Below, piece after piece: positions 17,897-63,987 of a stretch of DNA of 64,000 nt. The notes beneath the pieces were generated by a model that was not told the DNA's origin, did no database searches, and worked only from the letters and a program-made list of their open reading frames with translations. Origin of the DNA: an uncultured Candidatus Saccharibacteria bacterium. GTDB lineage: Bacteria > Patescibacteriota > SICC01. The number at the start of each line of letters is the position of its first letter. The stretch's first letter is position 1. The position numbers and the translations under genes are program-made. The stretch is from the NCBI GenBank assembly GCA_964476895.1, contig CAYZCS010000001.1, positions 1,351 to 65,350 on the forward strand, read 5' to 3'.

Positions 17897-20245
17897 ATGC
17901 CTGAATCCGACGGATTGGAGTTCGGGGGCGAGCACCCCGAGAACCTCCAGTACACCACCAAGGACGCGCGGCTCCTCAACCAGACCGAAACCGGCATCGC
18001 CCGGGCGGTCGCCGAAGAGTCGGAAAACTTCCTCGAACGCCAGTACGGACGGGTCTATATCGTCACGGATATCCCCTTCACCAACGACGCCTACGACGTC
18101 GGCGAGATCATCACCGACACGTTCCAACGCGAGTTCTTCGGGGATCTCAACCGCTCCGTCGGCGATGCGTTCGAGCACGCCCTGACGGTCCTCAATCAGA
18201 CGCTGGCCGACCTGGCCGCCGAAGGACAGTCCGACTGGGTCGGCAGGCTGAATGCGGTCATTTCCGTGGTCCACGAGAACCACATCTTCGTGACGCAGGC
18301 CGGAAGCGCCAAGGCGTACCTCGTCCGGGGCCACTCCTCCACCGACATCACCGAAGGGCTTTCCGAGCCGCCGGCCGGCGGCCAGACCGCGAAGACGTTC
18401 CTGAACGTCGCGGAGGGCGCGCTCGAGGTCGGCGACAAACTGGTGCTGGCCACGCCGGAGCTGCTGGAGCGGATCCAGATCCGCGACCTCCGCCGCACCG
18501 TCTTCCTGCATCCGCCGATCCGCACGATCCAGAAGCTCGCCGAACAACTCACCGAGCAACGTCCGGAACGGTTCGCGTCGGTGTTCGTCGAACTCACTAC
18601 CGTGGACCTGATCTCGACGGAGACCCTTTCCGAGGAACCGAACGAGATCATCCTGTCCGCACCGCGCCGACACTTCGAATCGCTCCAGCGGTTCCGCCCG
18701 CTCCGCAAGGACACCCCAGCCGCCGAACTGGCCGACAAGGCCCGCAAGCGTTGGGAACGGGAACTCCGACCGCGGGTCCAGCGGGCCACGGCAGGACTGA
18801 CCCACCGGGTCCGTTCCTGGCAGGCTTCCCGAAAGGGCGAGACGCCCCCGCCTCCGCCGCCGCGGCACGCGGCCGGCACCCCCGAGACCGAGCACCCGAA
18901 ACCGCGGTCCGACCGGCCGGTGACCGGTGCCGGAAGCCCGAATGCCGCCCTGGAGACCGTCCGACGGTTCGGCCGGCAGGCGGCCGAGTCCGCCCGTCCC
19001 GTCACCAGCAAGCTCCGGGAGCTCTGGGAGAAGAGCGGTATTCCGCGTTCCGGTGCTTGGCAGCGCGTCTCCGGAGTCGTCCGAAAGATTACCGCCCCGG
19101 TCTACCAGCGGGTGGCCGCCCTTCCCTGGCGCGACCAGTTCGCCGGCGACAAGCGGACCCTCTACCGGAACCTGATCCTTGCCGGCGCGCTGGTCCTGCT
19201 GATCAGCATCGCGCTCTCCGTGAATGCCGCCCAGAACCGCAAGGCCGAAGCCGACGTCCGCGAACGGATCGAGCAGGTCGAGGAGCTCCAGGCCAAGGCG
19301 GAAGCCAGCTTCATCTTCAAGGACGTGGCCGGCGCGCGGAAGCAACTCGCCGAGGCCCGGACACAGGCGAACGAACTCGAGCGGGAGGGCATCCTCGAGG
19401 ACGAGGTGTCCACGCTCCAGAAGAGCCTGACCGTCTCGGCGGACCGGATCAACGTGGTGGTCCGGGTGCAGGAGCCGATCGCCGACTTCCGGGAGCAGGC
19501 GGACGGCCCGCTGATCTCGATGGCCCAGTCCGGCACCAGCCTCTACGCGTTCGGCAAGCAATCGCCGGTCGTCACCTTCAACCTGAACGGCAGCGAGACC
19601 ACCGTCGGTGAGGAGCCGCCGGCGCAAAGCGCGGTCACCGGCACCGCGACGACCTCGAACGGCGACGTCCTCCTGCTGACCGACAAGCCGGCCCTGGTCC
19701 AGCTCGACACCGCTTCCGGCGCGGCCGCGGAAATCGAGATCGGGACCGGCGGCAGCTGGGAGCGCGGCTCGGCGGTCGACACCGTCCAGCAGAACGCGTA
19801 CATCCTTTCACCCGACGACGACCAGGTCTGGCGCCACACCCGGACGCTCTCCGCGTTCAACCGGGGCGAACCGTACTTCGACGGCGAAGTCGACCTGGAA
19901 GGCGCGGTCGATCTCGTGACCGGCGCGGCGGTGCACATCCTGAAGTCCGACGGCACGGTGATCCGGGCCAGCGGTGGCCAACCGGCGGACCTGCCGCTCG
20001 CGAAGCCACCCGCTCCGGACAGCTCGCTCGACGGCGCGACCGCGCTGGCGATCAACTTCGCGAACGACCACCTCTTCGTGGCCGATCCGGAGCGGAAGCG
20101 CGTGGTCGAGTTCAACGCCGACGGCGCCTACGTCCGCCAGTTCCGCAGCGATGACTTCGGCGACATCACCGACATCATCGTCGACGACAAGACGGAGCAG
20201 CTCTTCGTGCTCTCCGGCAACCGGCTTTGGCAAGTCGAGCTGTGA
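17897..20245 (+). CDS. large hypothetical protein with a central TM/coiled-coil segment and a repeat-rich C-terminal domain
   Basis: 782-aa ORF; the N-terminal region faintly resembles a PP2C-like fold (VISVVHENHIFVTQAGSAKAYLVRG); central LILAGALVLLISIAL helix. Confidence 0.55.
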   Translation: MPESDGLEFGGEHPENLQYTTKDARLLNQTETGIARAVAEESENFLERQYGRVYIVTDIPFTNDAYDVGEIITDTFQREFFGDLNRSVGDAFEHALTVLNQTLADLAAEGQSDWVGRLNAVISVVHENHIFVTQAGSAKAYLVRGHSSTDITEGLSEPPAGGQTAKTFLNVAEGALEVGDKLVLATPELLERIQIRDLRRTVFLHPPIRTIQKLAEQLTEQRPERFASVFVELTTVDLISTETLSEEPNEIILSAPRRHFESLQRFRPLRKDTPAAELADKARKRWERELRPRVQRATAGLTHRVRSWQASRKGETPPPPPPRHAAGTPETEHPKPRSDRPVTGAGSPNAALETVRRFGRQAAESARPVTSKLRELWEKSGIPRSGAWQRVSGVVRKITAPVYQRVAALPWRDQFAGDKRTLYRNLILAGALVLLISIALSVNAAQNRKAEADVRERIEQVEELQAKAEASFIFKDVAGARKQLAEARTQANELEREGILEDEVSTLQKSLTVSADRINVVVRVQEPIADFREQADGPLISMAQSGTSLYAFGKQSPVVTFNLNGSETTVGEEPPAQSAVTGTATTSNGDVLLLTDKPALVQLDTASGAAAEIEIGTGGSWERGSAVDTVQQNAYILSPDDDQVWRHTRTLSAFNRGEPYFDGEVDLEGAVDLVTGAAVHILKSDGTVIRASGGQPADLPLAKPPAPDSSLDGATALAINFANDHLFVADPERKRVVEFNADGAYVRQFRSDDFGDITDIIVDDKTEQLFVLSGNRLWQVEL

Positions 20246-21069
20246 TGCCAGACGCGGAACATCCTTCCTGGTCCGAACTGGCGAAGCGTCCCTACCCGGA
20301 ACACATCTACGATTCCGTCAGAACCGGAATTGCCAAGGGGCTGATCGAGAAGGAACTACGGAAGCAGCTTCCTGAACTGGGAACGGATGCCCAGGAGGCA
20401 CTCCGGTGTGGCATTGACCACTGGACGGATGGCAGCAGGGTCGGCTTGGCGGGTATCCATGATTTCTGGAACGGGTTCGACGGCATTACCCGGGGCTTCA
20501 AGCTCAAGCAATTCCTACCGGTACTGACCGGCAGGAACGTTTCCTGGGAGCGCACCGAGGTGGCGATCGCATCGGTCACGACGACCGCGGACCTGCCCGT
20601 GATGGAATCGCTCGAAGGACCTCCTTATCCGATACCGGACCTGCTGAAGGCGCTCGAGGATCCGAAGGTGCGGGCAGCATTCAAAAAGGACTCCGACCAC
20701 CATGCAGAGCATCCTGTCCGTCGTGACCACTATCCCGTGATCCTGATGAACGACGGTACGACAAAGAACACCATGGATGGCAATCGGCGGATCATCCGGG
20801 CGGCTGTCTACGACCGCCCCACGATCGACGCTTGGGTCGGCACGATCACTGACGGAAACCGCCCCTGCGACTATTGGGTCACCACCGGCTACCTACGGAA
20901 CCTGGTCCGGTTCGCCGAAGAACAAGGAAACGATGCCGTCACCGAAGCGACGTTCACTATCCTTAGGACCTTGATGAGCGAGACTGAAATCGCCAAGACA
21001 AACTACCGCTTGCGAATCATGAAGCCGGGATCATTCGGGGAAGCGCTCGGCAAACGCCTTGGGCTTTAG
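20245..21069 (+). CDS. hypothetical protein
   Basis: ATG overlaps the upstream TGA (TGATG); local GC is lower than the neighbours. Confidence 0.5.
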   Translation: MPDAEHPSWSELAKRPYPEHIYDSVRTGIAKGLIEKELRKQLPELGTDAQEALRCGIDHWTDGSRVGLAGIHDFWNGFDGITRGFKLKQFLPVLTGRNVSWERTEVAIASVTTTADLPVMESLEGPPYPIPDLLKALEDPKVRAAFKKDSDHHAEHPVRRDHYPVILMNDGTTKNTMDGNRRIIRAAVYDRPTIDAWVGTITDGNRPCDYWVTTGYLRNLVRFAEEQGNDAVTEATFTILRTLMSETEIAKTNYRLRIMKPGSFGEALGKRLGL

Positions 21070-22789: not shown

Positions 22790-22945
22790 ATGAGTTCCAG
22801 GAACAACGGCAGCCACAGCGCTGACGGCTTGGTGTTGGTCGCGCTCCTCGTCATCATCGTATCCGTAGCGTTTGCCGTATCCATGGCCGCGGACAGCGAC
22901 AGCGGCTCGATCCTGCCTCACTACGTCGTCGCCGTGCCAATCTGA
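22790..22945 (+). CDS. micro-ORF 1: single-TM small protein (51 aa)
   Basis: strong SD (AAGGGAGGA) 7 nt upstream of the ATG; hydrophobic core LVLVALLVIIVSVAFAV. Confidence 0.5.
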   Translation: MSSRNNGSHSADGLVLVALLVIIVSVAFAVSMAADSDSGSILPHYVVAVPI

Positions 22946-23002
22946 CCAACGTTCGTTCACAACCGACGGATCACCGGCAACAGCCGGAGAAAGGGATTTC
23001 CC

Positions 23003-23161
23003 ATGGACCGGAAAGACCACGGCAGCTTCACCGGCATGTCGCCGACCGTCGTGATCATCGGCATCGTCTGCTTCGTGATCCTCCTGATCGCCCTCGGCGT
23101 GGGCATCGAGGACCAGTACGGCACGCCACACGACCCGGCGCCTCCGGCGCAGACCCGGTAA
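23003..23161 (+). CDS. micro-ORF 2: single-TM small protein (52 aa)
   Basis: SD-like GGAGAAAGGGA upstream; TVVIIGIVCFVILLIALGVG helix; below the ORF-track cutoff. Confidence 0.5.
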   Translation: MDRKDHGSFTGMSPTVVIIGIVCFVILLIALGVGIEDQYGTPHDPAPPAQTR

Positions 23162-23182
23162 CCGCGCAACCAAGGAGATCCA

Positions 23183-23290
23183 ATGAACGAGAAAAGGGCG
23201 TTCGAAGCGCTCGGCTTTCTGCTCCTCATCGGGGGTGGTGTCATCTGCATCGGCATCGTCCTTCTGACAACCGCCGGTTGCGGTTCCTGA
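23183..23290 (+). CDS. micro-ORF 3: single-TM small protein (35 aa)
   Basis: SD AAGGAGA 6 nt upstream; LGFLLLIGGGVICIGIVLLTTAG helix; immediately followed by the T1 terminator. Confidence 0.45.
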   Translation: MNEKRAFEALGFLLLIGGGVICIGIVLLTTAGCGS

Positions 23291-23308
23291 CATCCCCACA
23301 CCGGCAAA

Positions 23309-23357
23309 CCCCTGACCCACCAACGTCCGCAAGGACATGGGTCAGGGGTTTCTATTT
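23309..23357 (+). terminator. structured intrinsic terminator, copy T1 of a 3-copy repeat
   Basis: outer stem CCCCTGACCCA/TGGGTCAGGGG, inner hairpin GTCC-GCAA-GGAC, then TTTCTATTT. Confidence 0.7.
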
Positions 23358-23387
23358 GCCTATCCGGAATTCAGGCATAATCGAGGC

Positions 23388-23837
23388 ATGAAGGTCATCG
23401 CGAAGAACCGGCGGGCCCGGCACGACTACATCCTCGAACAGACGTACGAGGCGGGCTTGGCGCTGACCGGCGCCGAGGTGAAGTCGATCAAGGCGAGCGA
23501 CATCTCGATCCAGGAAGCATACGTGATCATCCGCGGCGGCGAGGCGTACCTGCTCGGGGCGCACGTGAAGCCGTGGCACGGCGCCGACGGCGAACCCGAC
23601 CCTACCCGGACCCGGAAGCTCCTGCTCCACCGCCGCGAACTGGACAAGCTGGTCGGCGCGACCAAGGAAAAGGGCCGCACCCTCGTGCCGGTCACGGTCG
23701 GGCTCAGCAAAGGTCTGGTCAAGCTCGAGATCGCGCTCGCCCGCGGCAAGAAGATCCACGACAAACGCGAGACGCTCAAGCGCCGCCAGGCCGACCGCGA
23801 GGCCGCCCAAGCGGTCAAGCGTGCCACGAAAAGCTAG
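23388..23837 (+). CDS. smpB: SsrA-binding protein
   Basis: MKVIAKNRRARHDYILEQTYEAGLALTGAEVKS and the conserved SmpB core; SD GAGG 5 nt upstream. Confidence 0.9.
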   Translation: MKVIAKNRRARHDYILEQTYEAGLALTGAEVKSIKASDISIQEAYVIIRGGEAYLLGAHVKPWHGADGEPDPTRTRKLLLHRRELDKLVGATKEKGRTLVPVTVGLSKGLVKLEIALARGKKIHDKRETLKRRQADREAAQAVKRATKS

Positions 23838-23868
23838 TCCATTGACAAACTTCTGAGAATCCGTAGAC

Positions 23869-24339
23869 TTGGATATCGTGAGCCTACGATCCGCATCCCC
23901 CGACTCCGAACCGGGGTCGAGACCCGACCTCGACCTCGAACCTGCCGCCGAGACCGCGGCGGGAGGCGAAGCGTTCCCCGCGGAGCCAGGCATCCCCATC
24001 GAGCCAGCCGGCGAAGACAGCGGTGAATCGAGCCCTGACGCCGACATCGTCGCCCCGGAACCGCTTGGCAAACTGGATCCGGACAGTTTCCGCGGGCGGT
24101 CCGAGACCCGGGCCAGTGCGACGAGCGGCCCGCAGTTGGAGCGCCTACTGGAGACGTTCCCATCAGGAGTCGGGCGCTACTTCCGCGAACGCACGGATGC
24201 CCGGACCGGCAAGAAGGGGCCCGGGCCCCTTCCCCGTGCACCGCTCAGTGGCCGCGGCACAGACGCGATCATGCGGGTCAAGAAAGCCCGGAAATACCTG
24301 GAAGACCGGGCTACGCCACGCGACGAAGCGGATAAATAG
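23869..24339 (+). CDS. hypothetical acidic low-complexity protein
   Basis: ORF with Pro/Glu/Asp-rich composition; coding status uncertain. Confidence 0.3.
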   Translation: MDIVSLRSASPDSEPGSRPDLDLEPAAETAAGGEAFPAEPGIPIEPAGEDSGESSPDADIVAPEPLGKLDPDSFRGRSETRASATSGPQLERLLETFPSGVGRYFRERTDARTGKKGPGPLPRAPLSGRGTDAIMRVKKARKYLEDRATPRDEADK

Positions 24340-24955
24340 CGCCGTCGAACGGCTCATCCAGCCGGTACTGCCGCTGTTCCGCGGTCGTGCCGTCGAAGCG
24401 TAACGCGAGCGCGGTGTCGGGGCTCGGTGCCGTCGAGAGCATCAGCTCGCTATCCTCAAACCACTCGGAATCCCGGTCCAGCAGGTAGTACAGCTCGGGC
24501 GCGTTCGCCAGCACGAGCGGTTCCGCGGGATTACCCGGCAGGTCCATCCGGAGCATGCCCAGGCTCGTGAAGAAATCGGCTGCCGTTTCCGGCTCCGAAC
24601 TCATGCACCGCCGGGCGATCTCCCCTGCATCCAGCGGTTCCTCATAGACGGCGTACCAGCCCGGACCGCTGACTGCCTGGTCGAAGACGTCGCTCCACCG
24701 TTCGGGAACCGGCCGGTCATTGCGTCGGAACGGCACGAACCGGACCCGCACGCCGTGCTCCTCGAACCGCTCCAGGTCGCCGTCATGGAAGCGCCGCGGC
24801 AACCGGCTGATCGCCGTGATGTCGAGCACCCGGCTGGCCCGCTCGAGTTCCCGTGCCTCCAGCGATTCCACGAAGTAGCGCTCCTGCACCGGTTGGAGCC
24901 CGGTGAGCTCCTCGTCCGGATCGAATCCGTGGTCTGGCGTAGGTTCGTCGATCAT
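24311..24955 (-). CDS. hypothetical protein
   Basis: start at MIDEPTPDHG; the longer track ORF has a basic non-coding-looking extension. Confidence 0.45.
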   Translation of the reverse strand: MIDEPTPDHGFDPDEELTGLQPVQERYFVESLEARELERASRVLDITAISRLPRRFHDGDLERFEEHGVRVRFVPFRRNDRPVPERWSDVFDQAVSGPGWYAVYEEPLDAGEIARRCMSSEPETAADFFTSLGMLRMDLPGNPAEPLVLANAPELYYLLDRDSEWFEDSELMLSTAPSPDTALALRFDGTTAEQRQYRLDEPFDGAIYPLRRVA

Positions 24956-25145
24956 GGTGTTCCTTGGTTCCGCAAAGTGACGGCGTGCGGGTGACACCCC
25001 TTGATACCGCGCTTTGGAAAAGTCGTCAACCGCTGTGCGGGGCGCGCGGCGGCAAGCTGGAAAATCTCCGGACCGCCCGGGCCGCGGGCCAGGAATCTCT
25101 TTTTTGGGAACATCAGCCTTGCGGCGCAATCCCAAATTCCTTACA

Positions 25146-25463
25146 ATGCAGTCACTTTTTAGCCGTATCGGTAGCTACTTAACAACCAGGGAACAGGCAC
25201 GAAAGGAAATCATCGTGGGAGACGAACGGAGCCCCTCCGAAATAGAAGCAGACAAGAGGAAACAGGAACGATGGTACAGGGAGCACATGAGGGAGGAGCA
25301 AAGAAGAAGAGACAGGGGAGAACCGACCCATCAAGAGATATGGGAACAGAAACAACGCAAAGAGTCCATAAAAGCGTTCGTGCAAGTCGGGAGCGGGGTG
25401 GTGGCAATCTTGATCATCATCGGTTCCATCGTGTGGGCCGGCGTGGAGCTGTTCACCGGTTGA
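25146..25463 (+). CDS. hypothetical protein with a charged N-region and a C-terminal TM helix
   Basis: MQSLFSRIG...VQVGSGVVAILIIIGSIVWAGV; lies in a lower-GC patch and is followed by terminator T2. Confidence 0.5.
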   Translation: MQSLFSRIGSYLTTREQARKEIIVGDERSPSEIEADKRKQERWYREHMREEQRRRDRGEPTHQEIWEQKQRKESIKAFVQVGSGVVAILIIIGSIVWAGVELFTG

Positions 25464-25525
25464 TTGACACTATGCGCGTCACCGCAGAAGTAATCCGCGT
25501 CCGAAGCCCTCGCCGTCAATCAATA

Positions 25526-25579
25526 CCCCCCTGACCCACCAACGGTTCTTACGGACCAAGGGTCAGGGGGTTTCATTTT
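25526..25579 (+). terminator. structured intrinsic terminator, copy T2
   Basis: CCCCCTGACCCACC...inner GGTTC-TTAC-GGACC...GGTCAGGGGG then TTTCATTTTG. Confidence 0.7.
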
Positions 25580-25684
25580 GGCAGATTGTCGTTGTCCGCC
25601 TGCAGACGACGCTGTACAATGGCTGACTCGACAGTCAGGTAGCTTCATTAACAATCCGCAAACCACCAATGGGGAGAGATACAC

Positions 25685-25996
25685 ATGGGCCTTGAGGCCG
25701 GTAACGAGCACCACTACACTGGGGGGCCGGAACAGTGGCAACCCTCACCTTCACCCAGCATTCCCGCGGTGTTCTTCGGAATCATATTCCTGGCGGGTTT
25801 CTTTTTCTTCTTTCTGATGCTCACGTCGGCGCTCCTGATCCATATCCTCGGCGAAATCACGCCGCTGAGCAGCGAAGGCATTCAAGGATCGGTCGGGAGC
25901 ATCATCCTCGTCGTGAACGGGATCCTGGCCGGTATCGGAGCACTGTATATCGGAATAACCTACGCAGCAGAAGAAAGAGGCAAAAGCTCTGCATAA
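25685..25996 (+). CDS. small membrane protein (two predicted TM helices)
   Basis: FFGIIFLAGFFFFFLML and IILVVNGILAGIGALYIGI helices; followed by T3. Confidence 0.5.
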   Translation: MGLEAGNEHHYTGGPEQWQPSPSPSIPAVFFGIIFLAGFFFFFLMLTSALLIHILGEITPLSSEGIQGSVGSIILVVNGILAGIGALYIGITYAAEERGKSSA

Positions 25997-26004
25997 GAAC
26001 ACTT

Positions 26005-26057
26005 CCCCTGACCCACCAACGGTTCTTACGAACCACGGGTCAGGGGGTTCTTTTTGC
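26005..26057 (+). terminator. structured intrinsic terminator, copy T3
   Basis: CCCCTGACCCACCAACGGTTCTTACGAACCACGGGTCAGGGGG then TTCTTTTTG. Confidence 0.7.
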
Positions 26058-26101
26058 AAGGCGAGTCTCGGCCGAACCCGGAATTCAGGCGTAATCGAAC
26101 C

Positions 26102-26185
26102 ATGAACGCCGAGAACCGGCGCGACCGGAAGGACTATCTGCTTGAGCAGACGTTCGAGGCGGGTATCGCGCCGTCGAACGGCCTA
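26102..26185 (+). pseudogene. smpB 5' fragment: diverged duplicate of the smpB upstream region plus the first ~27 codons
   Basis: CCGGAATTCAGGCGTAATCGAACCATGAACGCCGAGAACCGGCGCGACCGGAAGGACTAT... aligns at about 75% nt identity with 23362-23470; encodes MNAENRRDRKDYLLEQTFEAGIA (SmpB: MKVIAKNRRARHDYILEQTYEAGLA) and then runs into the purN 3' end on the opposite strand. Confidence 0.6.
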
Positions 26186-26848
26186 CCCGCGGTGCGGAGT
26201 ACGCGCGCCGGCGACCGTGCAGATCTCGGCGAGGGCGCGGGTCAGCGCCTTGTGCTCCGCCGGCTTGATCCGGGCGTAGAGCTTCTCGACCGTGTCGCCG
26301 TCTTTCACGTCCACCATCGCCCGCTGGAACACCGGCCCCACACCGCCGTCCGGCGTGTGCGCGAAGACGCTCGAACCCGCCCACTTTTGTCCGGCCGCCA
26401 GCACCGCCTGGATCGCGTTCTCGCCAGCCAGGCCCAGGCACGGGTCGGCGAAGTTGCCGTCCGGCAGCTTGAACTTGTGATAGCCCGGGTCGGGGATGAG
26501 TCCCGGATGCACCGAGAGCACCCGCCACGGGAAGTACTTATGGAAGGCTTCGGAGAGGTCGTACGTCCAGCCCGCCAGGACGACCAGGTCCGGGGCATAG
26601 CGCTGGAGCTTGTGGGCCAGGTCCTCCTCGTAGTGCGCGCGGGGCTTCCCGTGCGCGGCGTAGTCCGCGTGGTCCAGCACGACGGTCGGCACGTCCGCCT
26701 CGCGGGCACGCACCAGGCCGTAGGCGCTCTCCTTGTCCGACGCCACCGCCACGACCTGGCCGTCGAACCGCTCGGCCTGGCCGTCCAGCATGGCCTGCAG
26801 GTTGGAGCCGCCGCTTTTGTTCGAGATCAGTACCGCGATGCGTTTCAT
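26183..26848 (-). CDS. purN: phosphoribosylglycinamide formyltransferase
   Basis: MKRIAVLISNKSGGSNLQA N-terminus and the formyl-transferase HPGLIP region. Confidence 0.8.
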   Translation of the reverse strand: MKRIAVLISNKSGGSNLQAMLDGQAERFDGQVVAVASDKESAYGLVRAREADVPTVVLDHADYAAHGKPRAHYEEDLAHKLQRYAPDLVVLAGWTYDLSEAFHKYFPWRVLSVHPGLIPDPGYHKFKLPDGNFADPCLGLAGENAIQAVLAAGQKWAGSSVFAHTPDGGVGPVFQRAMVDVKDGDTVEKLYARIKPAEHKALTRALAEICTVAGARTPHRG

Positions 26849-29386: not shown

Positions 29387-29820
29387 GGGGATGCACCGGA
29401 TTCGACGGTGGCGTACCTTGACAGGTTGCCGGCCGAGGACGAACGCTCACCTCGCTAATCACGCGTTCAACGGCATTACAACTGCCAACTTCAAAGAGAA
29501 GCTTAGCGGTGTTGTCGCTTCCGCCCGGGAAAGCATTGCTTCCCTGAGCGATGCGTTCGCCCCGCGACAGCTCTCTCCCATCCGGGCGTAATACCCCGGA
29601 TCGTGCCCGCGCGAGCGCCCGGCTCGCACGGTAGCGCGTCATACTCCGGGCTCATCCGGATTCCCTAGTCTCAGGAAATTCGGAGACACGTTTGAGACTG
29701 GGTAGGCTGCGTTTCGTCCGCTTTCGAGCAGCCTGCTGACAGCAAAAAGTGGACTATGCCGGTAGATCGCCTTTCAACGGTCTCCATCGGACGGGGGTTC
29801 GACTCCCCCCATCTCCACCA
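29387..29820 (+). ncRNA. ssrA: tmRNA (transfer-messenger RNA)
   Basis: 5' GGGGATGCACCGGATTCGACGG pairs with 3' ...GGACGGGGGTTCGACTCCCCCCATCTCCACCA (tRNA-like domain, T-arm, CCA encoded); the tag frame is not resolvable with confidence. Confidence 0.8.
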
Positions 29821-30064
29821 AGCGGCTCTCTGAGCTCACCGGCAATACGCTTGCCGTAAGAAAAATAGCTTTGGAAAGAGATTGGATCGAGAATCACTAC
29901 TGCTCGCAAGAAACGCGATACTTAGGAGCAGCTAGAAAGGAGTTGCCAGTACCTATGCCGGTTTCATTGAGCAAGAATGGCGGCGACTCACTGTTGCAAC
30001 ATTAAGAGACTGACAAAAAGGCCCTGGCATAAAGCTCGAAGATATTTTCAAAGTCTTGTAGCAT

Positions 30065-32023
30065 CTACACGCTAGTCACCTGCTCAACCAGATCCTCTGC
30101 TGTGGCTTCTTTCGATATTTTCTTTTTTTGAAATTCAAGTTGTTTTAGCACAAAATCTAACCGCAAATTCACTTCTGTAAAAATTTCACTCCAGGTTTTT
30201 ACGTAAATTTCATAGTTGTCGACACTCTGAATAAGTGATTTCTTGCCATGAACTTTGGCACTTTTTTGCTCTCGTTTTATATAACCCGAGGTGTCAAATT
30301 TGTTCCCCACTAGATAAAACTCCCACTTCATATTTGGAGCATTAAATTCACTCTGCTCAAGAATGACCCCCATGTACTTTTTAACCTGATCCAGCTCTTT
30401 GGCTCCGAGCCTAACCGTAGGCTTTTTGAGTTCCACCACGATGTTATGAATCTCATCATTTTCTTTTAGCTGTCGACAAAGAAATATATCCATTTGCTTA
30501 CGCTTGTCTGGATGGTCAATTTTGACGTTCTTCTTTTCGTCTCGTAAAAGATATAAGTACCGACGAAGAGCCTCTTCAAATACTGGCTCTGCCTCTGTGA
30601 CTAGATGGAATCTTTCCCCAAAAATCCAATAAGACGAAGCTACGATTGTTTGAACATGCGGCACTTCTTTAGCTCTAACATTGTCGTCAAAAACAAGTTT
30701 CTTTAGAGCCTGCAAGTCTTTGTTTCGTCTCTCAAGCATTCGAGTCGTCGCGACCATGCGTGACATATTTGTACTTTGCAGAAGCTCAGCCAATTCCCTG
30801 CGCTCGCTTCTATCAAGATCTACTATTTCCTCAATAATTTTTAGTAGATTTTCCGTTTCATTAGTGTCGATTAAGAGATTCAATAAGCCAACAAAGGTCT
30901 TTTTTTGCTCAATGTTGAGTGTAGAAAAAATTTTAGGCTCGAGCTTGTAGAGGTCCTTAACTAAAACCTGAAGATGCTCTTTTCTAATTTGGTCAAATTC
31001 AGACTCAAGCTCCGGAAAGACCTTTTCGCTCTCATACTCTTTTACTAGATTGTCTGCATTGGTTTTTAGGAAAGGCTTTCTCAACTTTCTCAAATACCCC
31101 GAGAGTTCCTTCTGAAGAAACTTAAACTCAGGACTTGAACGATCAACCCCTATCAAAGTAGATTGATTTTTCTTTTCCTTTCCAAAGCCAAAGTTATCAA
31201 AGAACGAGGATTTGATGTAAACACTGTGATAAAAATCATCACCTTTTCTGTTCAAAGTAGTAAATTCTTTCCACTTTTCTTTATCTTTGGAGTCAATGTA
31301 GTAATACTGCGACCACTCCTTATTTAGACTTTCCTTCCATCGAACGTATGAGATATGAAACTTTGTATTGCTCTCTTCGTGAGTGAACTCTGTTTCCTTT
31401 CTGTCTCCAATCAATGCTGTGTAATCCAGCTCTTCTCCATTAATAAGAATCTTGAACGCTTTACTTTTATTTAGCTCTAAAAACCATCCAAACTCTCTTA
31501 CGAGGAAAGGTTGTAACTCTTGCTCGATCTGCGTTCTCGTAAAATCAAATATTGACGAAAGTATTACTTCTGTCCCTGGTTTTTCAGTAGTGATTTTTGG
31601 AGTCGTCGGATTAAAGAGATCGAGTCGTTTTGAATCAGCCTTAATCCGATACTTATGCCTCTTGCCAGCCTTCTTGTACACCGTTTCCCATGAAGCTTCA
31701 TTAGCAAACTTAAAGAAAGTTAGTCTGCCTACACCAGTTCGTCCGTGCAGTTGAGATTGATTGAAAGTTTTTTCGGCAAATTTCTCGGAATCATGAAATC
31801 TCCGAAATTTTTCTTCGAGCTTTGAGTGATCAATTCCATATCCATTGTCACGAATAGTGATAGAAGAAAGGTTGCCTATCGCATTACTATCAAATTCCAG
31901 TTCGACTTTGGTTGCATTGGCATCAAAGCCATTCCAAATGTACTCAGCAAGGGATCGATTTCTATCATAATTATCAAGAACCTGCTTGATACCCACCGAG
32001 GTAATTCGAACGCTTTTGCTCAT
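30065..32023 (-). CDS. GHKL-family ATPase (MORC/HATPase_c_3-like N-domain) with a C-terminal PD-(D/E)xK-like nuclease module
   Basis: Bergerat-fold boxes: N-box EYIWNGFDA, G1 IRDNGYGI, G2 HGRTGVGRL; C-terminal MDIFL...IVVELKKP (D...ExK pattern); 652 aa; 38% GC. Confidence 0.65.
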   Translation of the reverse strand: MSKSVRITSVGIKQVLDNYDRNRSLAEYIWNGFDANATKVELEFDSNAIGNLSSITIRDNGYGIDHSKLEEKFRRFHDSEKFAEKTFNQSQLHGRTGVGRLTFFKFANEASWETVYKKAGKRHKYRIKADSKRLDLFNPTTPKITTEKPGTEVILSSIFDFTRTQIEQELQPFLVREFGWFLELNKSKAFKILINGEELDYTALIGDRKETEFTHEESNTKFHISYVRWKESLNKEWSQYYYIDSKDKEKWKEFTTLNRKGDDFYHSVYIKSSFFDNFGFGKEKKNQSTLIGVDRSSPEFKFLQKELSGYLRKLRKPFLKTNADNLVKEYESEKVFPELESEFDQIRKEHLQVLVKDLYKLEPKIFSTLNIEQKKTFVGLLNLLIDTNETENLLKIIEEIVDLDRSERRELAELLQSTNMSRMVATTRMLERRNKDLQALKKLVFDDNVRAKEVPHVQTIVASSYWIFGERFHLVTEAEPVFEEALRRYLYLLRDEKKNVKIDHPDKRKQMDIFLCRQLKENDEIHNIVVELKKPTVRLGAKELDQVKKYMGVILEQSEFNAPNMKWEFYLVGNKFDTSGYIKREQKSAKVHGKKSLIQSVDNYEIYVKTWSEIFTEVNLRLDFVLKQLEFQKKKISKEATAEDLVEQVTSV

Positions 32024-32060
32024 ACGAGTATCTTACCAGTCAGACTTTTGCGATTTTCTT

Positions 32061-33080
32061 TCATGATTCAAATTTCCCAATCTCGGCATACCAATCAATT
32101 GTATCTACCAAATCTAGATCGCACGGCACAGGATTATCCTCGATAAATTTAGCCTCAAAATACTGGTTCCAGTAAGCTTCGGCTGATCGCCGAGGATGGT
32201 TTGCAAGCCACGAATCAAAGTAGTCGAAGTGAACGTCGTAGTGGTGTGTATGCATGAAGTCGTCCCACGTACCTTGCAACTGGTCAGCATCAGCACCTGG
32301 TCGGGCAATAATCTCGAACTGCTCAAATTCACGTTTTTCTTTTGAGCCCCAGCCCTTTTTTAGCTGCTCCATCGCTGCTACATCCGAATCTGGCGCGCGA
32401 TAACCAAAAACCGTTACCCATGCCGCGGATTTTAGTGCTTCCGTTAGACGCAGCCACTCGCTGGCGATAAACGGATTTTCCTCATAATTCTTCTCGTTGA
32501 CCGGATACAACAAGGGCACAGGACTGAAAGTTTTCTTGCAAACACTACAATTATTCCCAACTGTTCCGGCAATCCGATCTTTCTCGCATATCCCAACCAT
32601 GACATTGCCATGAAGAAACGCTAGCGGCGGCCGCGACAAAGTCCTCCGGCCACTTCTTGCGTAAGCTTGCATTAAAAGCGGATCCCAATTGAAGCTGGCA
32701 ATTAAGTCCTTATCTCGAAGTGACAAAATAAGGTGATCGTAGATTGTCGGATCATCTGGAATCTGGAAGCGCTCGTAATATTCATGAATGGCTTCATCTA
32801 TCTTGTCTGCAATCTCCGCTTTCGACCGATCCAACCGTAGATCTGAATAGGCAGACTCAAAATCCTCAACGTCGCCTAAGCCAGCCTCTTCCAGCAGAGG
32901 AGCAACAGTTTCTATTTTCGATAGACCTTTCATGTCAGTCGGTCGCTTCCCGTTCCTGTCTCCATTAGGCAGAGCAGCAATACTTGCGCCGGCGCCGAGA
33001 ATTACAACATGTGGCTTACCGGCAAAAGGCTTTTCAACCTCTTGCTCTTTAGTAACTTCAGAACCAGATGACGCTGCCAT
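32061..33080 (-). CDS. SIR2-like (sirtuin/DHS-like NAD-binding fold) protein
   Basis: VVILGAGASIA (GAGxS), FNWDPLL (TTNYD-like), LAFLHGN (catalytic HG), Cys-x12-Cys-x2-Cys, VTVFGYRAPDSD; 37 bp upstream of the GHKL gene on the same strand. Confidence 0.65.
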   Translation of the reverse strand: MAASSGSEVTKEQEVEKPFAGKPHVVILGAGASIAALPNGDRNGKRPTDMKGLSKIETVAPLLEEAGLGDVEDFESAYSDLRLDRSKAEIADKIDEAIHEYYERFQIPDDPTIYDHLILSLRDKDLIASFNWDPLLMQAYARSGRRTLSRPPLAFLHGNVMVGICEKDRIAGTVGNNCSVCKKTFSPVPLLYPVNEKNYEENPFIASEWLRLTEALKSAAWVTVFGYRAPDSDVAAMEQLKKGWGSKEKREFEQFEIIARPGADADQLQGTWDDFMHTHHYDVHFDYFDSWLANHPRRSAEAYWNQYFEAKFIEDNPVPCDLDLVDTIDWYAEIGKFES

Positions 33081-42239: not shown

Positions 42240-42387
42240 CTGCCGCACCGCACCGTCCCCGCCCGGAACCACTCCTCATCAAGGAGCCGGGCGGGGACTT
42301 TTGCTGTACCCAAAGAGTAAGATGCGGATAGCCGCGACGGGAAAGCCCGACGCCACGGTCGAAGTCTGATCTGCCCCAGCGGTCCGC

Positions 42388-44557: not shown

Positions 44558-44893
44558 TCCTGTAGTCGCCCGCGTCACACCCGTCCCCGTCCGGAACCAC
44601 TTCTTTTTTAGAAGCCGGACGGGGACCTTTGCTATATCGACTTACGAGTACGTCTTTGCGCTTTATCTGCCTTCCGTCAACAGCTACCTCTTGCCCAGTT
44701 TGAGTCCGCTAGCATATCATGCATTATGGCCTTTACAAAGCGATTTATTTACGATACGATTCGAGGCCGATTAGCACGTTAACATCCGCACCGGAGAGCT
44801 CAGCGAGCGTACACCGTGCGCCTGATGAGCTCTCCGTTGCTGCTGCGGCCGAGCACCACTACACGACATCCAGCAGCCGAAAGGAAAGTCATC

Positions 44894-45481: not shown

Positions 45482-45575
45482 CAGCAATGGAAGCACCGGG
45501 CGGGCAGCCACAGACAACCAACGTCTCCGCTGCCCGCCCGTTACCACTTTATGTGGTACTTAAACGTGCTACCTG

Positions 45576-51389: not shown

Positions 51390-52373
51390 TTACAGTTCGG
51401 CAAAGGCCGTCCTGGCATCCAGCCCAGCCTGCCGCGAACGTTCCTCGAGGATCGGCCGCAGCCTTTCCTCGGCCTCGGCAATGACCCGCCGCGCGTACTT
51501 GATCGAGACGCCAAGCTCTCGGGCGGTGTCGCGAATCCCTTTCGGCTCTTCTTCGCCAAGGCCATACCGTAGCTGCAGCGCCCGGACCAGACGCTCGTCC
51601 TCGGATTGTTCCAGGTCCTTGATCGATTCCCCCAGCGCCGACATCAGACGTCGTCTGGTATCCTCGTCTGTGACTATTTCCTCGGGAGCACCGCTCTGCT
51701 TGTCCACTTGAAGTTCCCCGAGCGTCGTATCACCGTCACCGCCTTTTACCGGACTGTCGAGCGATACCGCCGGCTCGTCTATGTCGCGGAGTGCGTCGAC
51801 TTCCGCCGGTTCCCTCCCGAGTTCCGCGGCGACTTCTTCAGCGGTCGGCTCGCGGTTCAGGAGGGACGTCAACCGGTTCTCTGCGCGGCGCATCTTGGCG
51901 ATCTCCTGTCCGATGTGGATCGGAACACGCGCCGTCCGACCCTCGTTGTAGAGCCCGCGCGACATGCTCTGACGGATCCACCAGGTCGCGTAAGTCGAGA
52001 ACTTATACCCGCGCCGCCAATCGAACTTTTCCGCGGCCCTGATCAGTCCCATGCTGCCGTGCTGAATCAGGTCGAGCTTATGAAGACCGTGACCCTCATA
52101 GCGCTTCGTGAGCGAGACCACTAGCCGGAGGTTCGAATTGATCAAGTGCTGCTTCGCCTCCAGGTCACCCCGTTCGATCCGTTTGGCCAGGTCCACCTCT
52201 TGTTCAGCCGTCAGCAGAGGATGCTTCTGGATGTCACGGAAATACAGGTCGAGTCCGTCTTCCGGCATGACATCGGCAACGGCCGTTTCGGCGGAAGCAG
52301 CTTCCGTGGAAACTGCTTCCGCGGGAACCACTTCCGCGTCTGATATTTCGTACTGTAGCGCTGTTTCTGCCAT
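51390..52373 (-). CDS. RNA polymerase sigma-70 family factor (RpoD-like, regions 1.2-4)
   Basis: LYFRDIQKHPLLTAEQE, DLIQHGSMGLIRAAEKFD, YATWWIRQ and a C-terminal region 4 HTH. Confidence 0.85.
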   Translation of the reverse strand: MAETALQYEISDAEVVPAEAVSTEAASAETAVADVMPEDGLDLYFRDIQKHPLLTAEQEVDLAKRIERGDLEAKQHLINSNLRLVVSLTKRYEGHGLHKLDLIQHGSMGLIRAAEKFDWRRGYKFSTYATWWIRQSMSRGLYNEGRTARVPIHIGQEIAKMRRAENRLTSLLNREPTAEEVAAELGREPAEVDALRDIDEPAVSLDSPVKGGDGDTTLGELQVDKQSGAPEEIVTDEDTRRRLMSALGESIKDLEQSEDERLVRALQLRYGLGEEEPKGIRDTARELGVSIKYARRVIAEAEERLRPILEERSRQAGLDARTAFAEL

Positions 52374-62886: not shown

Positions 62887-63987
62887 CTATGCCACCTGCC
62901 GGTCCCGTTCGGAATCGGTGAGGAACGCCGGGGATGCATCCCATCCGTCCGGTGCCGGGGCTCGGGATGCTTCCCGTTCCGCCCGTCGGTCGTGCGCCCC
63001 GCCTGCGTGCGCAGAGCGAAGCGATCCGGCCAGCATCTCTTCGAGCAACTGTAGTCCCCGCTTCTCCATCATCTGGGCCCTCCCGTGCGTCACGCCCAGT
63101 CTTTGGCCGATCCGGTCGTACGACTCGGGTTTTTTCCCTTCGAACAGGTAGCGGCCCCGGATGATGGCCGCCTCCCCGGGGTGGTACCGTTCCAGCTTCC
63201 TGAGCCCTTCCGCCAGGAGTCCCCGCTCTTCCGCCGCCGCGGCTTCTTCCGCAGGCTCGGGAGCGGAATCAGGAAGCAGGCCTCCAAGCGTATTGCCGTC
63301 CTCGCCTTCCTTGTTGCCGACCGGACGATCCAATGACGCCGTGGTCCGGCTGGCATCGCGCCACCCTGCCACGTCGGCCGCTTCCACGCCCATCTTCTCG
63401 GCGATTTCCGTAACGGTCGGTTCCCGTCCCAGCGTCGCCATCAGGGCGGATTCCGCCCCTTTCATCTTGTTGACCTCTTCGTAGATGTGAACGGGCAGCC
63501 GGATGCTCCGTCCCTTGTCCGCGACTCCCCGACGTACCGCCTGGCGAATCCACCAGCTTGCATACGTCGAGAACTTGAATCCCCGTCGATGATCGAACTT
63601 TTCGACGGCCCGGATCAGACCGATGTTCCCTTCCTGGATCAGGTCGAGCAGCGGCAGGTCGGAGTGCCGGTACGTCTTCGCGATCGAGACGACGAGACGG
63701 AGGTTGGATTCGACCATCCGGTCCTTCGCCTCCATGTCGCCACGGCCGATCCGCTGAGCCAGACTGCGCTCTTCCGAAGCGGTCAGGAGCGGATACTGGG
63801 AGATACCGTCCAGGTACGCCTGCAAGGAGTCTACGGAAGAAACCGTCCATGCTTCCGACATCACCTGTTCGGCGGGCGACTGATCCTGCCCCGAAACCGT
63901 CCCGTCCCCGACCAGCTCCTCTGACTCCAGGGCAGCTTCGGGCTCCAGGGCCATCTCGATGTCGGGTGCTTCCTTCATCATCACCAA
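62887..63987 (-). CDS. RNA polymerase sigma-70 family factor (second RpoD-like paralog)
   Basis: [42 protein letters not shown], region 4 HTH; N-terminus lies about 13 nt from the right window edge. Confidence 0.85.

Follow-up and report, generated by a model that had tools for sequence, protein, structure and literature searches.

The smpB–purN locus

The window, i.e. the entire 64-kb stretch of DNA under analysis, harbours a live smpB gene next to argS and, further downstream, a gene for a formyltransferase of the PurN type. Between and around these genes lie the hypothetical genes hyp1 and hyp2, the small ORFs tm1 to tm4, the hairpins T1 to T3 and an incomplete second copy of the smpB start region (Table 1). 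The product of the live smpB gene matches the Pfam SmpB profile with 175.8 bits (E 6e-52) and the NCBIfam SmpB equivalog (TIGR00086) with 183.5 bits, the cut-off being 130. The purN gene product is recognised by Pfam as Formyl_trans_N (4.7e-30). With the NCBIfam PurN model it reaches 131 bits at a cut-off of 150, which makes it, measured by that model, a formyltransferase of the PurN-like type. Among relatives there is free variation in its last 5-10 residues.

Searches with SmpB assign the window to high-GC Saccharimonadia (Patescibacteria), with L001, L002, L003, L004 and L005 as the nearest genomes. The closest relative is L001 (contig JBBDXB010000006.1), which shares 88% identity with the window in SmpB and about 90% overall on the nucleotide level. 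The contigs L161-L167 of further relatives were included in the comparison.

Table 1. Coordinates of features at the smpB–purN locus (window positions).
Feature	Position	Strand	Remarks
argS	21155 to about 22900	−	
tm1	23003-23161	+	tiny hydrophobic ORF
tm2	23183-23290	+	tiny hydrophobic ORF
Hairpin T1	23306-23351	+	terminator-like stem-loop after tm2, directly upstream of live smpB
Resident smpB promoter region	23364-23387	+	CCGGAATTCAGG spacer end, -10-like CATAAT (23376-23381), 6 nt, ATG
Live smpB	23388-23837	+	149 aa
hyp1	23869-24339	+	
hyp2	24311-24955	−	
15-mer source copy	24339-24353	+	GCGCCGTCGAACGGC, at hyp1 stop / hyp2 3′ end
Genome-specific block	25034-26182		1,149 nt
tm3	25215-25463	+	82-aa ORF, charged N-terminal part, one hydrophobic segment
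Hairpin T2	25527-25570	+	terminator-like, after tm3
tm4	25685-25996	+	103-aa hydrophobic ORF
Hairpin T3	26005-26046	+	terminator-like, after tm4
Spacer and decayed smpB promoter copy	26058-26101	+	16 extra nt, CCGGAATTCAGG, -10 as CGTAAT (26090-26095)
Pseudo-smpB	26102-26171	+	ATG and 23 codons
Deletion joint	26165-26182	+	microhomology AT(C/A)GCGC, then 11 nt (CGTCGAACGGC) from hyp1 3′ end
PurN-like formyltransferase gene	26183-26848	−	stop codon 26183-26185

A second, diverged copy of the smpB promoter and 5′ end

A Smith-Waterman alignment of 23290-23560 with 25990-26260 pairs positions 23309-23463 with 26005-26171, and the copies are identical at 122 of the 149 aligned columns (82%). The score of 100 is far above chance, since 300 shuffles gave 18.6±2.4 with a maximum of 30. 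The second copy of the smpB promoter and 5′ end, which the first-pass annotation had proposed, is therefore real, and the peptides that it quoted for the fragment and for SmpB are correct. Common to both copies are a hairpin terminator, a spacer, a -10 box, the ATG and about 23 smpB codons.

The similarity is distributed unevenly along this region. In the hairpin, the 5′ stem is identical at 17 of 17 positions and the 3′ stem with the T tract at 21 of 24, while the loops differ. The promoter-start segment CCGGAATTCAGGC(A/G)TAATCGA(GG/AC)CATGAA agrees at 26 of 29 positions, and the coding part past a 6-nt gap at 50 of 65 (77%). The fragment's spacer is longer than the resident one by 16 nt. As to its extent, originally given as 26076-26185, the smpB-like stretch starts at about 26078 and its homology holds to about 26171; beyond that, 26168-26182 are a different piece of DNA and 26183-26185 are the purN stop codon. 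The upstream region and 5′ end of smpB exist here in a second, paralogous version that has diverged, and, as had been stated, the fragment is no fresh duplication.

Decay of the second copy

The translated fragment matches the Pfam SmpB profile (PF01668) with 17.1 bits (E 0.005), below the cut-off of 27, and covers only positions 2-34 of about 143. This sub-cut-off score, together with altered invariant residues at the N-terminus, sets it apart from SmpB genes. What it displays instead are the hallmarks of a duplication remnant: paralogous similarity beyond chance, restriction to one lineage and a collinear trace of a neighbouring gene.

Codons 3-4 are missing through a two-codon deletion. The fragment carries the replacements K6E, A10D, H12K and Y20F at residues that are invariant in all nine relatives, and L26P is another change at an invariant residue, but lies past the deletion joint. 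Where the relatives have the N-terminal motif KN(R/K)RARHDY, the fragment reads NAENRRDRKDY. Contrary to their earlier description, the substitutions are hence not conservative, because several of them fall on these invariant residues. The promoter is affected as well, as the -10 box reads CGTAAT in the fragment and CATAAT in the resident copy, and all nine relatives have A at the second position. This A at -11 is the most critical base of sigma-70 promoters.

Since the -11 A is now a G, two codons are lost, invariant residues are replaced and 85% of the smpB gene is absent, we infer that the fragment is presently inert. One could also envisage a working element, in which the copied promoter and leader drive regulatory transcription antisense to purN or in which a short peptide is expressed. 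In its favour, the two copies agree at 90% over the promoter-proximal 29 nt, the ATG is retained, and the frame remains open for 321 codons. However, at 69% GC long ORFs on the antisense strand are frequent, and the 321-aa ORF, which runs antisense to purN, has no Pfam match. The 16 extra nucleotides displace any upstream element, the -10 box has lost its A, and the fragment occurs in no other genome and is hence without conservation. We regard a present function as very unlikely.

For the timing of the duplication we considered four-fold degenerate sites, at which the window and L001 are about 70% identical in smpB, purN and lysA. By a rough calculation, the divergence of about 20% between the copies, under neutral drift, fits a duplication about as old as the split between the window and L001. 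The upstream identity of about 90% exceeds that of the coding part (77%), whereas in the simplest neutral case one would expect the reverse; the difference, however, is not significant (rough Fisher p of about 0.17).

Comparison of the locus with related genomes

The order argS(−)–smpB(+)–purN(−) is kept in all relatives sampled, as a check of synteny proposed with the original observation had asked, and the fragment is missing in every one of them. In the loci of L001-L005 and L161-L167 no second smpB 5′ copy was found, and a query with the fragment matches the resident smpB only. The window's hairpin is likewise absent near smpB in these loci. An ancient feature fixed in relatives, which would have spoken against a past rearrangement, is therefore not what the sampled genomes hold, and the fragment as a mark of such a rearrangement is supported.

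The interval between smpB and purN differs among relatives. The two genes are 17 nt apart in L161 and enclose hyp1 and hyp2 in L001, L165 and L163, hyp2 alone in L004 and two other small ORFs in L162. Since hyp1 and hyp2 are present in relatives that lack the fragment, they are older than the fragment and did not arrive with it. This contradicts the proposal that the 2.7 kb between the copies came in as a unit; L001, L165, L163 and L004 are all free of the fragment, and the DNA specific to this genome is limited to 25034-26182.

The same data bear on a more far-reaching scenario, in which the 5′ end of smpB was the place where a mobile element inserted, or was exchanged for that of the element. 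The 2.7-kb unit would then consist of smpB, hyp1, hyp2 and the small genes, and the fragment would be the original 5′ end after its displacement. An arrangement of accessory-looking genes flanked by direct copies of a gene's end does recall att duplications, and smpB lies 5.5 kb from the tmRNA gene. The tmRNA gene is a classic target of genomic islands, and att duplications at islands occur in ssrA or tRNA genes or at the ends of protein genes. In keeping with this likeness, a gene end is repeated here, in short and direct form, at the border of accessory genes, and the tmRNA partner locus is nearby. The differences, however, are numerous. The repeat comprises a 5′ end with its promoter and is about 20% diverged, not near-identical, and the content of the interval is ancestral in relatives, where hyp1 and hyp2 lie between smpB and purN without any fragment. 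Integration at the 5′ end would leave the intact gene at the far end, but the live smpB still stands on the ancestral side beside argS, and it is at the stop codon of purN that new joints have arisen. Furthermore, the hyp1 piece in the fragment (see below) is incompatible with an original smpB older than the arrival of hyp1. The ORFs between the copies were searched for an integrase, as had been suggested; apart from SmpB they have no Pfam or NCBIfam match, and no integrase or recombinase domain was detected in them. Taken together, integration into smpB is extremely unlikely.

In the same comparison, hyp1 and its counterpart in L001 (10497-10895) share 35% protein identity; the neighbouring genes share 82-95%. 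A strong promoter-like site, TTGACA-16-TAGACT, precedes hyp1 at 23842-23869 and is also found in L001.

A genome-specific block next to purN

The fragment is the right end of a block that L001 lacks. This block (25034-26182) has a GC content of 55.8%, compared with 67-69% in its neighbours, and adjoins the stop codon and last few codons of purN. Its left flank (24991-25033) matches L001 11540-11582 and its right flank, from 26193, matches L001 from 11600. As L001 has just 17 nt between these flank matches, the extra DNA of the window is confined to the interval 25033/26193. Within the block the order is leader–tm3–T2, leader–tm4–T3, smpB promoter joint, 23 decayed codons, 11-15 nt of hyp1 and the purN stop codon.

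We considered whether the block could be an assembly artefact, i.e. whether sequences of two strains from the same community were joined into one chimeric contig in this region. The feature is known from one genome only, a metagenome-assembled contig, its proteins are found on a single NCBI contig, and three copies of a 45-nt hairpin could mislead an assembler. Yet outside the hairpin stems the copies are about 20% diverged, the joint between fragment and purN (26171-26192) does not coincide with a repeat shared with smpB, which makes a k-mer join unexpected there, and both flanks are collinear with L001. A chimera therefore has very little probability.

Neither end of the block (25034 or 26182) has terminal inverted repeats, and a MITE or IS element was rejected as an explanation. 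The sole long inverted pair inside it, 25509-25537 and 26037-26065, consists of halves of T2 and T3. A candidate remnant of the purN 3′ end, which would mark a second duplication boundary at the left edge of the block, was also evaluated; 25030-25092 and 26187-26245 are 81% identical over 57 nt (z 3.6), and this pair is not the top one in a window-wide BLAST control.

Small membrane-protein cassettes and their hairpins

The block contains two cassettes; in each of them a promoter-like leader precedes a small membrane ORF, which is followed by a hairpin. The motif GGTAGCTnC(n)TTAACAA, some 30 nt ahead of the start codon, is common to the leaders of tm3 (25170-25185) and tm4 (25638-25654), with 15 of 16 positions in agreement, a value that equals the shuffle maximum. 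Because of this common leader motif the two cassettes look paralogous, though their ORFs are unrelated. A further promoter-like site lies upstream of tm4 at 25592-25620. Both ORFs are orphans in database searches: tm3 has no Pfam or NCBIfam match, and a search of 5.8 billion proteins returned tm3 itself only; for tm4, an exact look-up and a protein search gave the source contig only. The sole relative of tm4 is a partial ORF in L001, about 6 kb past its tmRNA gene.

The hairpins have the arms CCCTGACCC..GGGTCAGGG. T1 folds with -31 kcal/mol (z -5.9) and is followed by a U-rich tract, T2 folds with -29 kcal/mol and T3 with -26.8 kcal/mol (z -4.8); over T1-T3 the z scores range from -3.6 to -5.9, and all have U-rich tails. 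T2 and T3 are 96% identical over 45 nt. The stop codons of tm2, tm3 and tm4 lie 8-65 nt upstream of the hairpins. With a stable GC-rich stem-loop and a U tract after a stop codon, T1-T3 possess the sequence attributes of intrinsic terminators and look like putative terminators. They resemble Rho-independent terminators in their GC-rich stem-loops of -27 to -31 kcal/mol and their U-rich tracts. They differ in that an A/C-rich internal loop on the 5′ side (ACCAAC), which is conserved, interrupts the stem, and in that the upper stem covaries, with GUCC/GGAC in T1 and L001 and GGUUC/GAACC in T2 and T3; in addition, the total loop exceeds the limit of a simple scanner. An Rfam search of 22900-26300 with E up to 1 gave no match.

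Two other identities of the hairpins were dismissed. The 16-mer of the hairpin had 21 matches in viral contigs, 0 of which had the complementary arm, so that these are due to chance. An integron was suggested by the small ORFs in an array, each followed by a copy of one imperfect palindrome. In contrast to integron cassettes, however, the ORFs are individually provided with promoter-like leaders, an integron integrase was not observed, and the hairpin lacks the RYYYAAC/GTTRRRY core sites of attC and is followed by a T tract in the manner of a terminator.

Elsewhere in the window, 44-nt hairpins of the same build occur at 42255-42298, 44583-44626 and 45497-45540 (+), after plus-strand genes. 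They have a long GC stem, an A/C-rich stretch at the 5′ side of the loop (AACCAC / AACCAAC) and a T-containing tail. Those at 42255-42298 and 44583-44626 have the short upper stem as well and are 82% identical paralogues. Such hairpins may represent the form that terminators commonly take in this genome, or else a repeated motif.

In L001, the 3′ end of tm4 together with its hairpin is found with 72% identity over 159 nt (20324-20173). What recurs there is the 3′ end of tm4 with the hairpin and the next 35 nt or so (…CCGGGATTTTCAGG), and the surrounding DNA has no counterpart in the window. At L001 20160-20445 (−), the 3′ end of the tm4-like ORF, a T-type hairpin and CCGGGATTTTCAGG stand convergent with a SAM-methyltransferase gene. 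Among the ORFs past the tmRNA gene of L001 that were compared with Pfam, none was an integrase; only an EamA transporter and the methyltransferase were recognised.

This recurrence invites a speculative reading, for which we define a hairpin module as a small membrane-protein gene with its leader, the 45-nt interrupted hairpin and about 35 nt ending in CCGGAATTCAGG. It is very improbable, in our estimation, that the module is a duplicative or mobile cassette of high-GC Saccharimonadia which moves between the variable region beside ssrA, where it is located in L001, and the upstream region of smpB. A similarly low probability attaches to the corollary that the hairpin would serve as a recombination site and that the dead smpB start would be flanking DNA that hitch-hiked during one such move. 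If mobile hairpin cassettes proved true, they would be of moderate interest for genome dynamics in the Candidate Phyla Radiation (CPR).

The promoter joint and the hyp1 trace

The homology between the smpB promoters of the window and L001 begins at GGCATAAT (23373). Upstream of smpB, L001 and L002 have a different hairpin (GCGGCC..GGCCGC). In both copies within the window, by contrast, DNA of the hairpin module abuts the smpB -10 region at the joint ..CCGGAATTCAGG|C(A/G)TAAT... The hairpin-module homology, which is also present in L001 20221-20160, ends at precisely this joint, where the smpB-promoter homology starts. Since both window copies share the same joint, a single fusion event followed by copying is indicated.

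In most of the genomes compared (that of the window, L001-L005 and L161-L163), a -10-like hexamer (CATAAT, TACAAT, CACAAT or TAGAAT) ends 6 nt before the smpB ATG; L161 and L163 have GATATC at this place. A consensus scan called no sigma-70 site at the resident smpB promoter. To judge from the position of the hexamer, 6 nt before the ATG, the smpB mRNA may be leaderless in this clade.

The end of the fragment provides a second clue. The 15-mer GCGCCGTCGAACGGC occurs exactly twice in the 64 kb, at 24339 and 26168, and 26165-26182 are identical to 24336-24353 at 17 of 18 nt. A same-strand copy within 3.5 kb is found for 0.07% of random 15-mers and for 1.1% of random 11-mers. Since the 15-mer from the hyp1 3′ end follows the smpB piece directly, in the same order and on the same strand, the second copy probably once ran through hyp1. 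At the 15-mer site L001 has GCACCGCCGAAGGGT. Because the 15-mer matches the window and not L001, the copy would have come from a genome with the hyp1 sequence of this lineage. Both source sites, in smpB and in hyp1, contain AT(C/A)GCGC, and this microhomology could plausibly have served for a deletion that began at smpB codon 24 and reached the end of hyp1.

Origin of the fragment

The fragment had been ascribed to a different, perhaps foreign, smpB allele. Over positions -16 to +72 it is 82% identical to L001, 77-78% to the resident copy and 68-78% to the others, and it carries EQT, the state of the window/L001/L002 subclade, rather than ERT. It is thus placed within this subclade. Moreover, the joint of hairpin spacer and promoter is common to the fragment and the resident copy only, and the fragment ends in 15 nt identical to the window's own hyp1 3′ end, at 4 of which L001 differs. 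On these sequence grounds its source points to the host's own lineage or a very near relative.

We slightly favour, at a little better than even confidence, the view that the fragment is the dead 5′ remnant of an smpB region which arose by a segmental duplication within the lineage and was later trimmed by deletions. The following course of events would account for it. First, a hairpin module, as defined above, would have been fused to the smpB -10 region, displacing the terminator that is still present in L001 and L002. In a second step, a block from the cassettes through smpB and at least hyp1 would have been duplicated in direct orientation beside purN. Finally, the second copy would have lost the stretch from smpB codon 24 through hyp1 at AT(C/A)GCGC, and then hyp2, while the cassettes would have been deleted from the first copy, so that one working copy per gene was left.

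This model has its costs. It takes three events or more, and a genome that represents an intermediate stage was not found. There is also a mild tension in the ages of the parts, as a 15-mer identity of 100% next to a coding piece at 77% has, under equal age, an estimated probability of about 0.03-0.07. Furthermore, the cassette DNA, with 55% GC compared with 67-69%, and the orphan character of tm3 and tm4 would also suit foreign DNA.

The main rival is accordingly a closely related donor. At least about 1.1 kb from a close Saccharimonadia genome, in which tm3–T2–tm4–T3 stood upstream of smpB, would have entered at the purN stop codon through illegitimate recombination, with trimming afterwards. 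Apart from the deviating GC content, such a transfer would explain why tm3 and tm4 have no homologues save the partial tm4-like ORF elsewhere in L001, and why the fragment is no nearer to the resident copy (78%) than to L001 (82%). A donor with tm3 and tm4 in the argS–smpB spacer is conceivable, as this spacer contains differing small membrane ORFs across relatives. However, the joint that only the resident copy shares and the 15-mer identical to the window's hyp1 3′ end demand that the donor was of almost the same lineage and carried hyp1. The altered invariant SmpB residues resemble decay and not a working allele, and no donor appeared in genome or protein searches or, among the matches listed, in metagenomes, where a scan with SmpB gave no relative above 54% identity among the matches listed. 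We thus consider import from such a donor possible but unlikely.

Read as the remnant of a duplication, the fragment is a pseudogene scar, an ordinary and familiar feature of bacterial genomes. Like other bacterial gene remnants left by duplication and deletion, it is a truncated, diverged, lineage-specific copy in direct orientation near its parent, has lost its coding integrity, and ends in a deletion joint with microhomology and a collinear scrap of hyp1. It departs from them in that it retains the promoter and 5′ end, not a random internal piece, and in that it is set among two single-copy small gene cassettes. A literature search for smpB pseudogenes or smpB duplication in Saccharibacteria gave nothing relevant.

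In an annotation the fragment should carry the label of a pseudo-smpB remnant rather than that of a gene start, and the 337-aa ORF that it opens antisense to purN should be left uncalled; beyond this it is of little consequence. The locus illustrates that the small, streamlined genomes of Saccharimonadia do undergo local duplication and loss around smpB–purN, where small membrane-protein genes with a common terminator turn over quickly.

Other regions of the window

The tmRNA gene is located at 29387-29820 (+) by Rfam (151.8 bits) and was missed by ARAGORN. Past it, at 30001-33000, the GC content falls to 36-40%, and a 652-aa protein with HATPase_c_3 and HSDR_N domains is encoded at 30065-32023 (−). 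L001 and L002 have unrelated DNA after their tmRNA genes. The post-tmRNA DNA of the window is probably a variable island; a repeat of the tmRNA 3′ end as its boundary was not found in the window.

On the other side of the locus, a 280-aa ORF of about 60% GC without Pfam match (20227-21069, +) lies between a 782-aa gene and argS. It is missing in L001, in which the homologue of the 782-aa gene abuts argS. Direct repeats at 51969-52225 and 63541-63797, 11.6 kb apart, comprise stretches of 109 and 122 nt with 70-78% identity and are probably paralogous genes.
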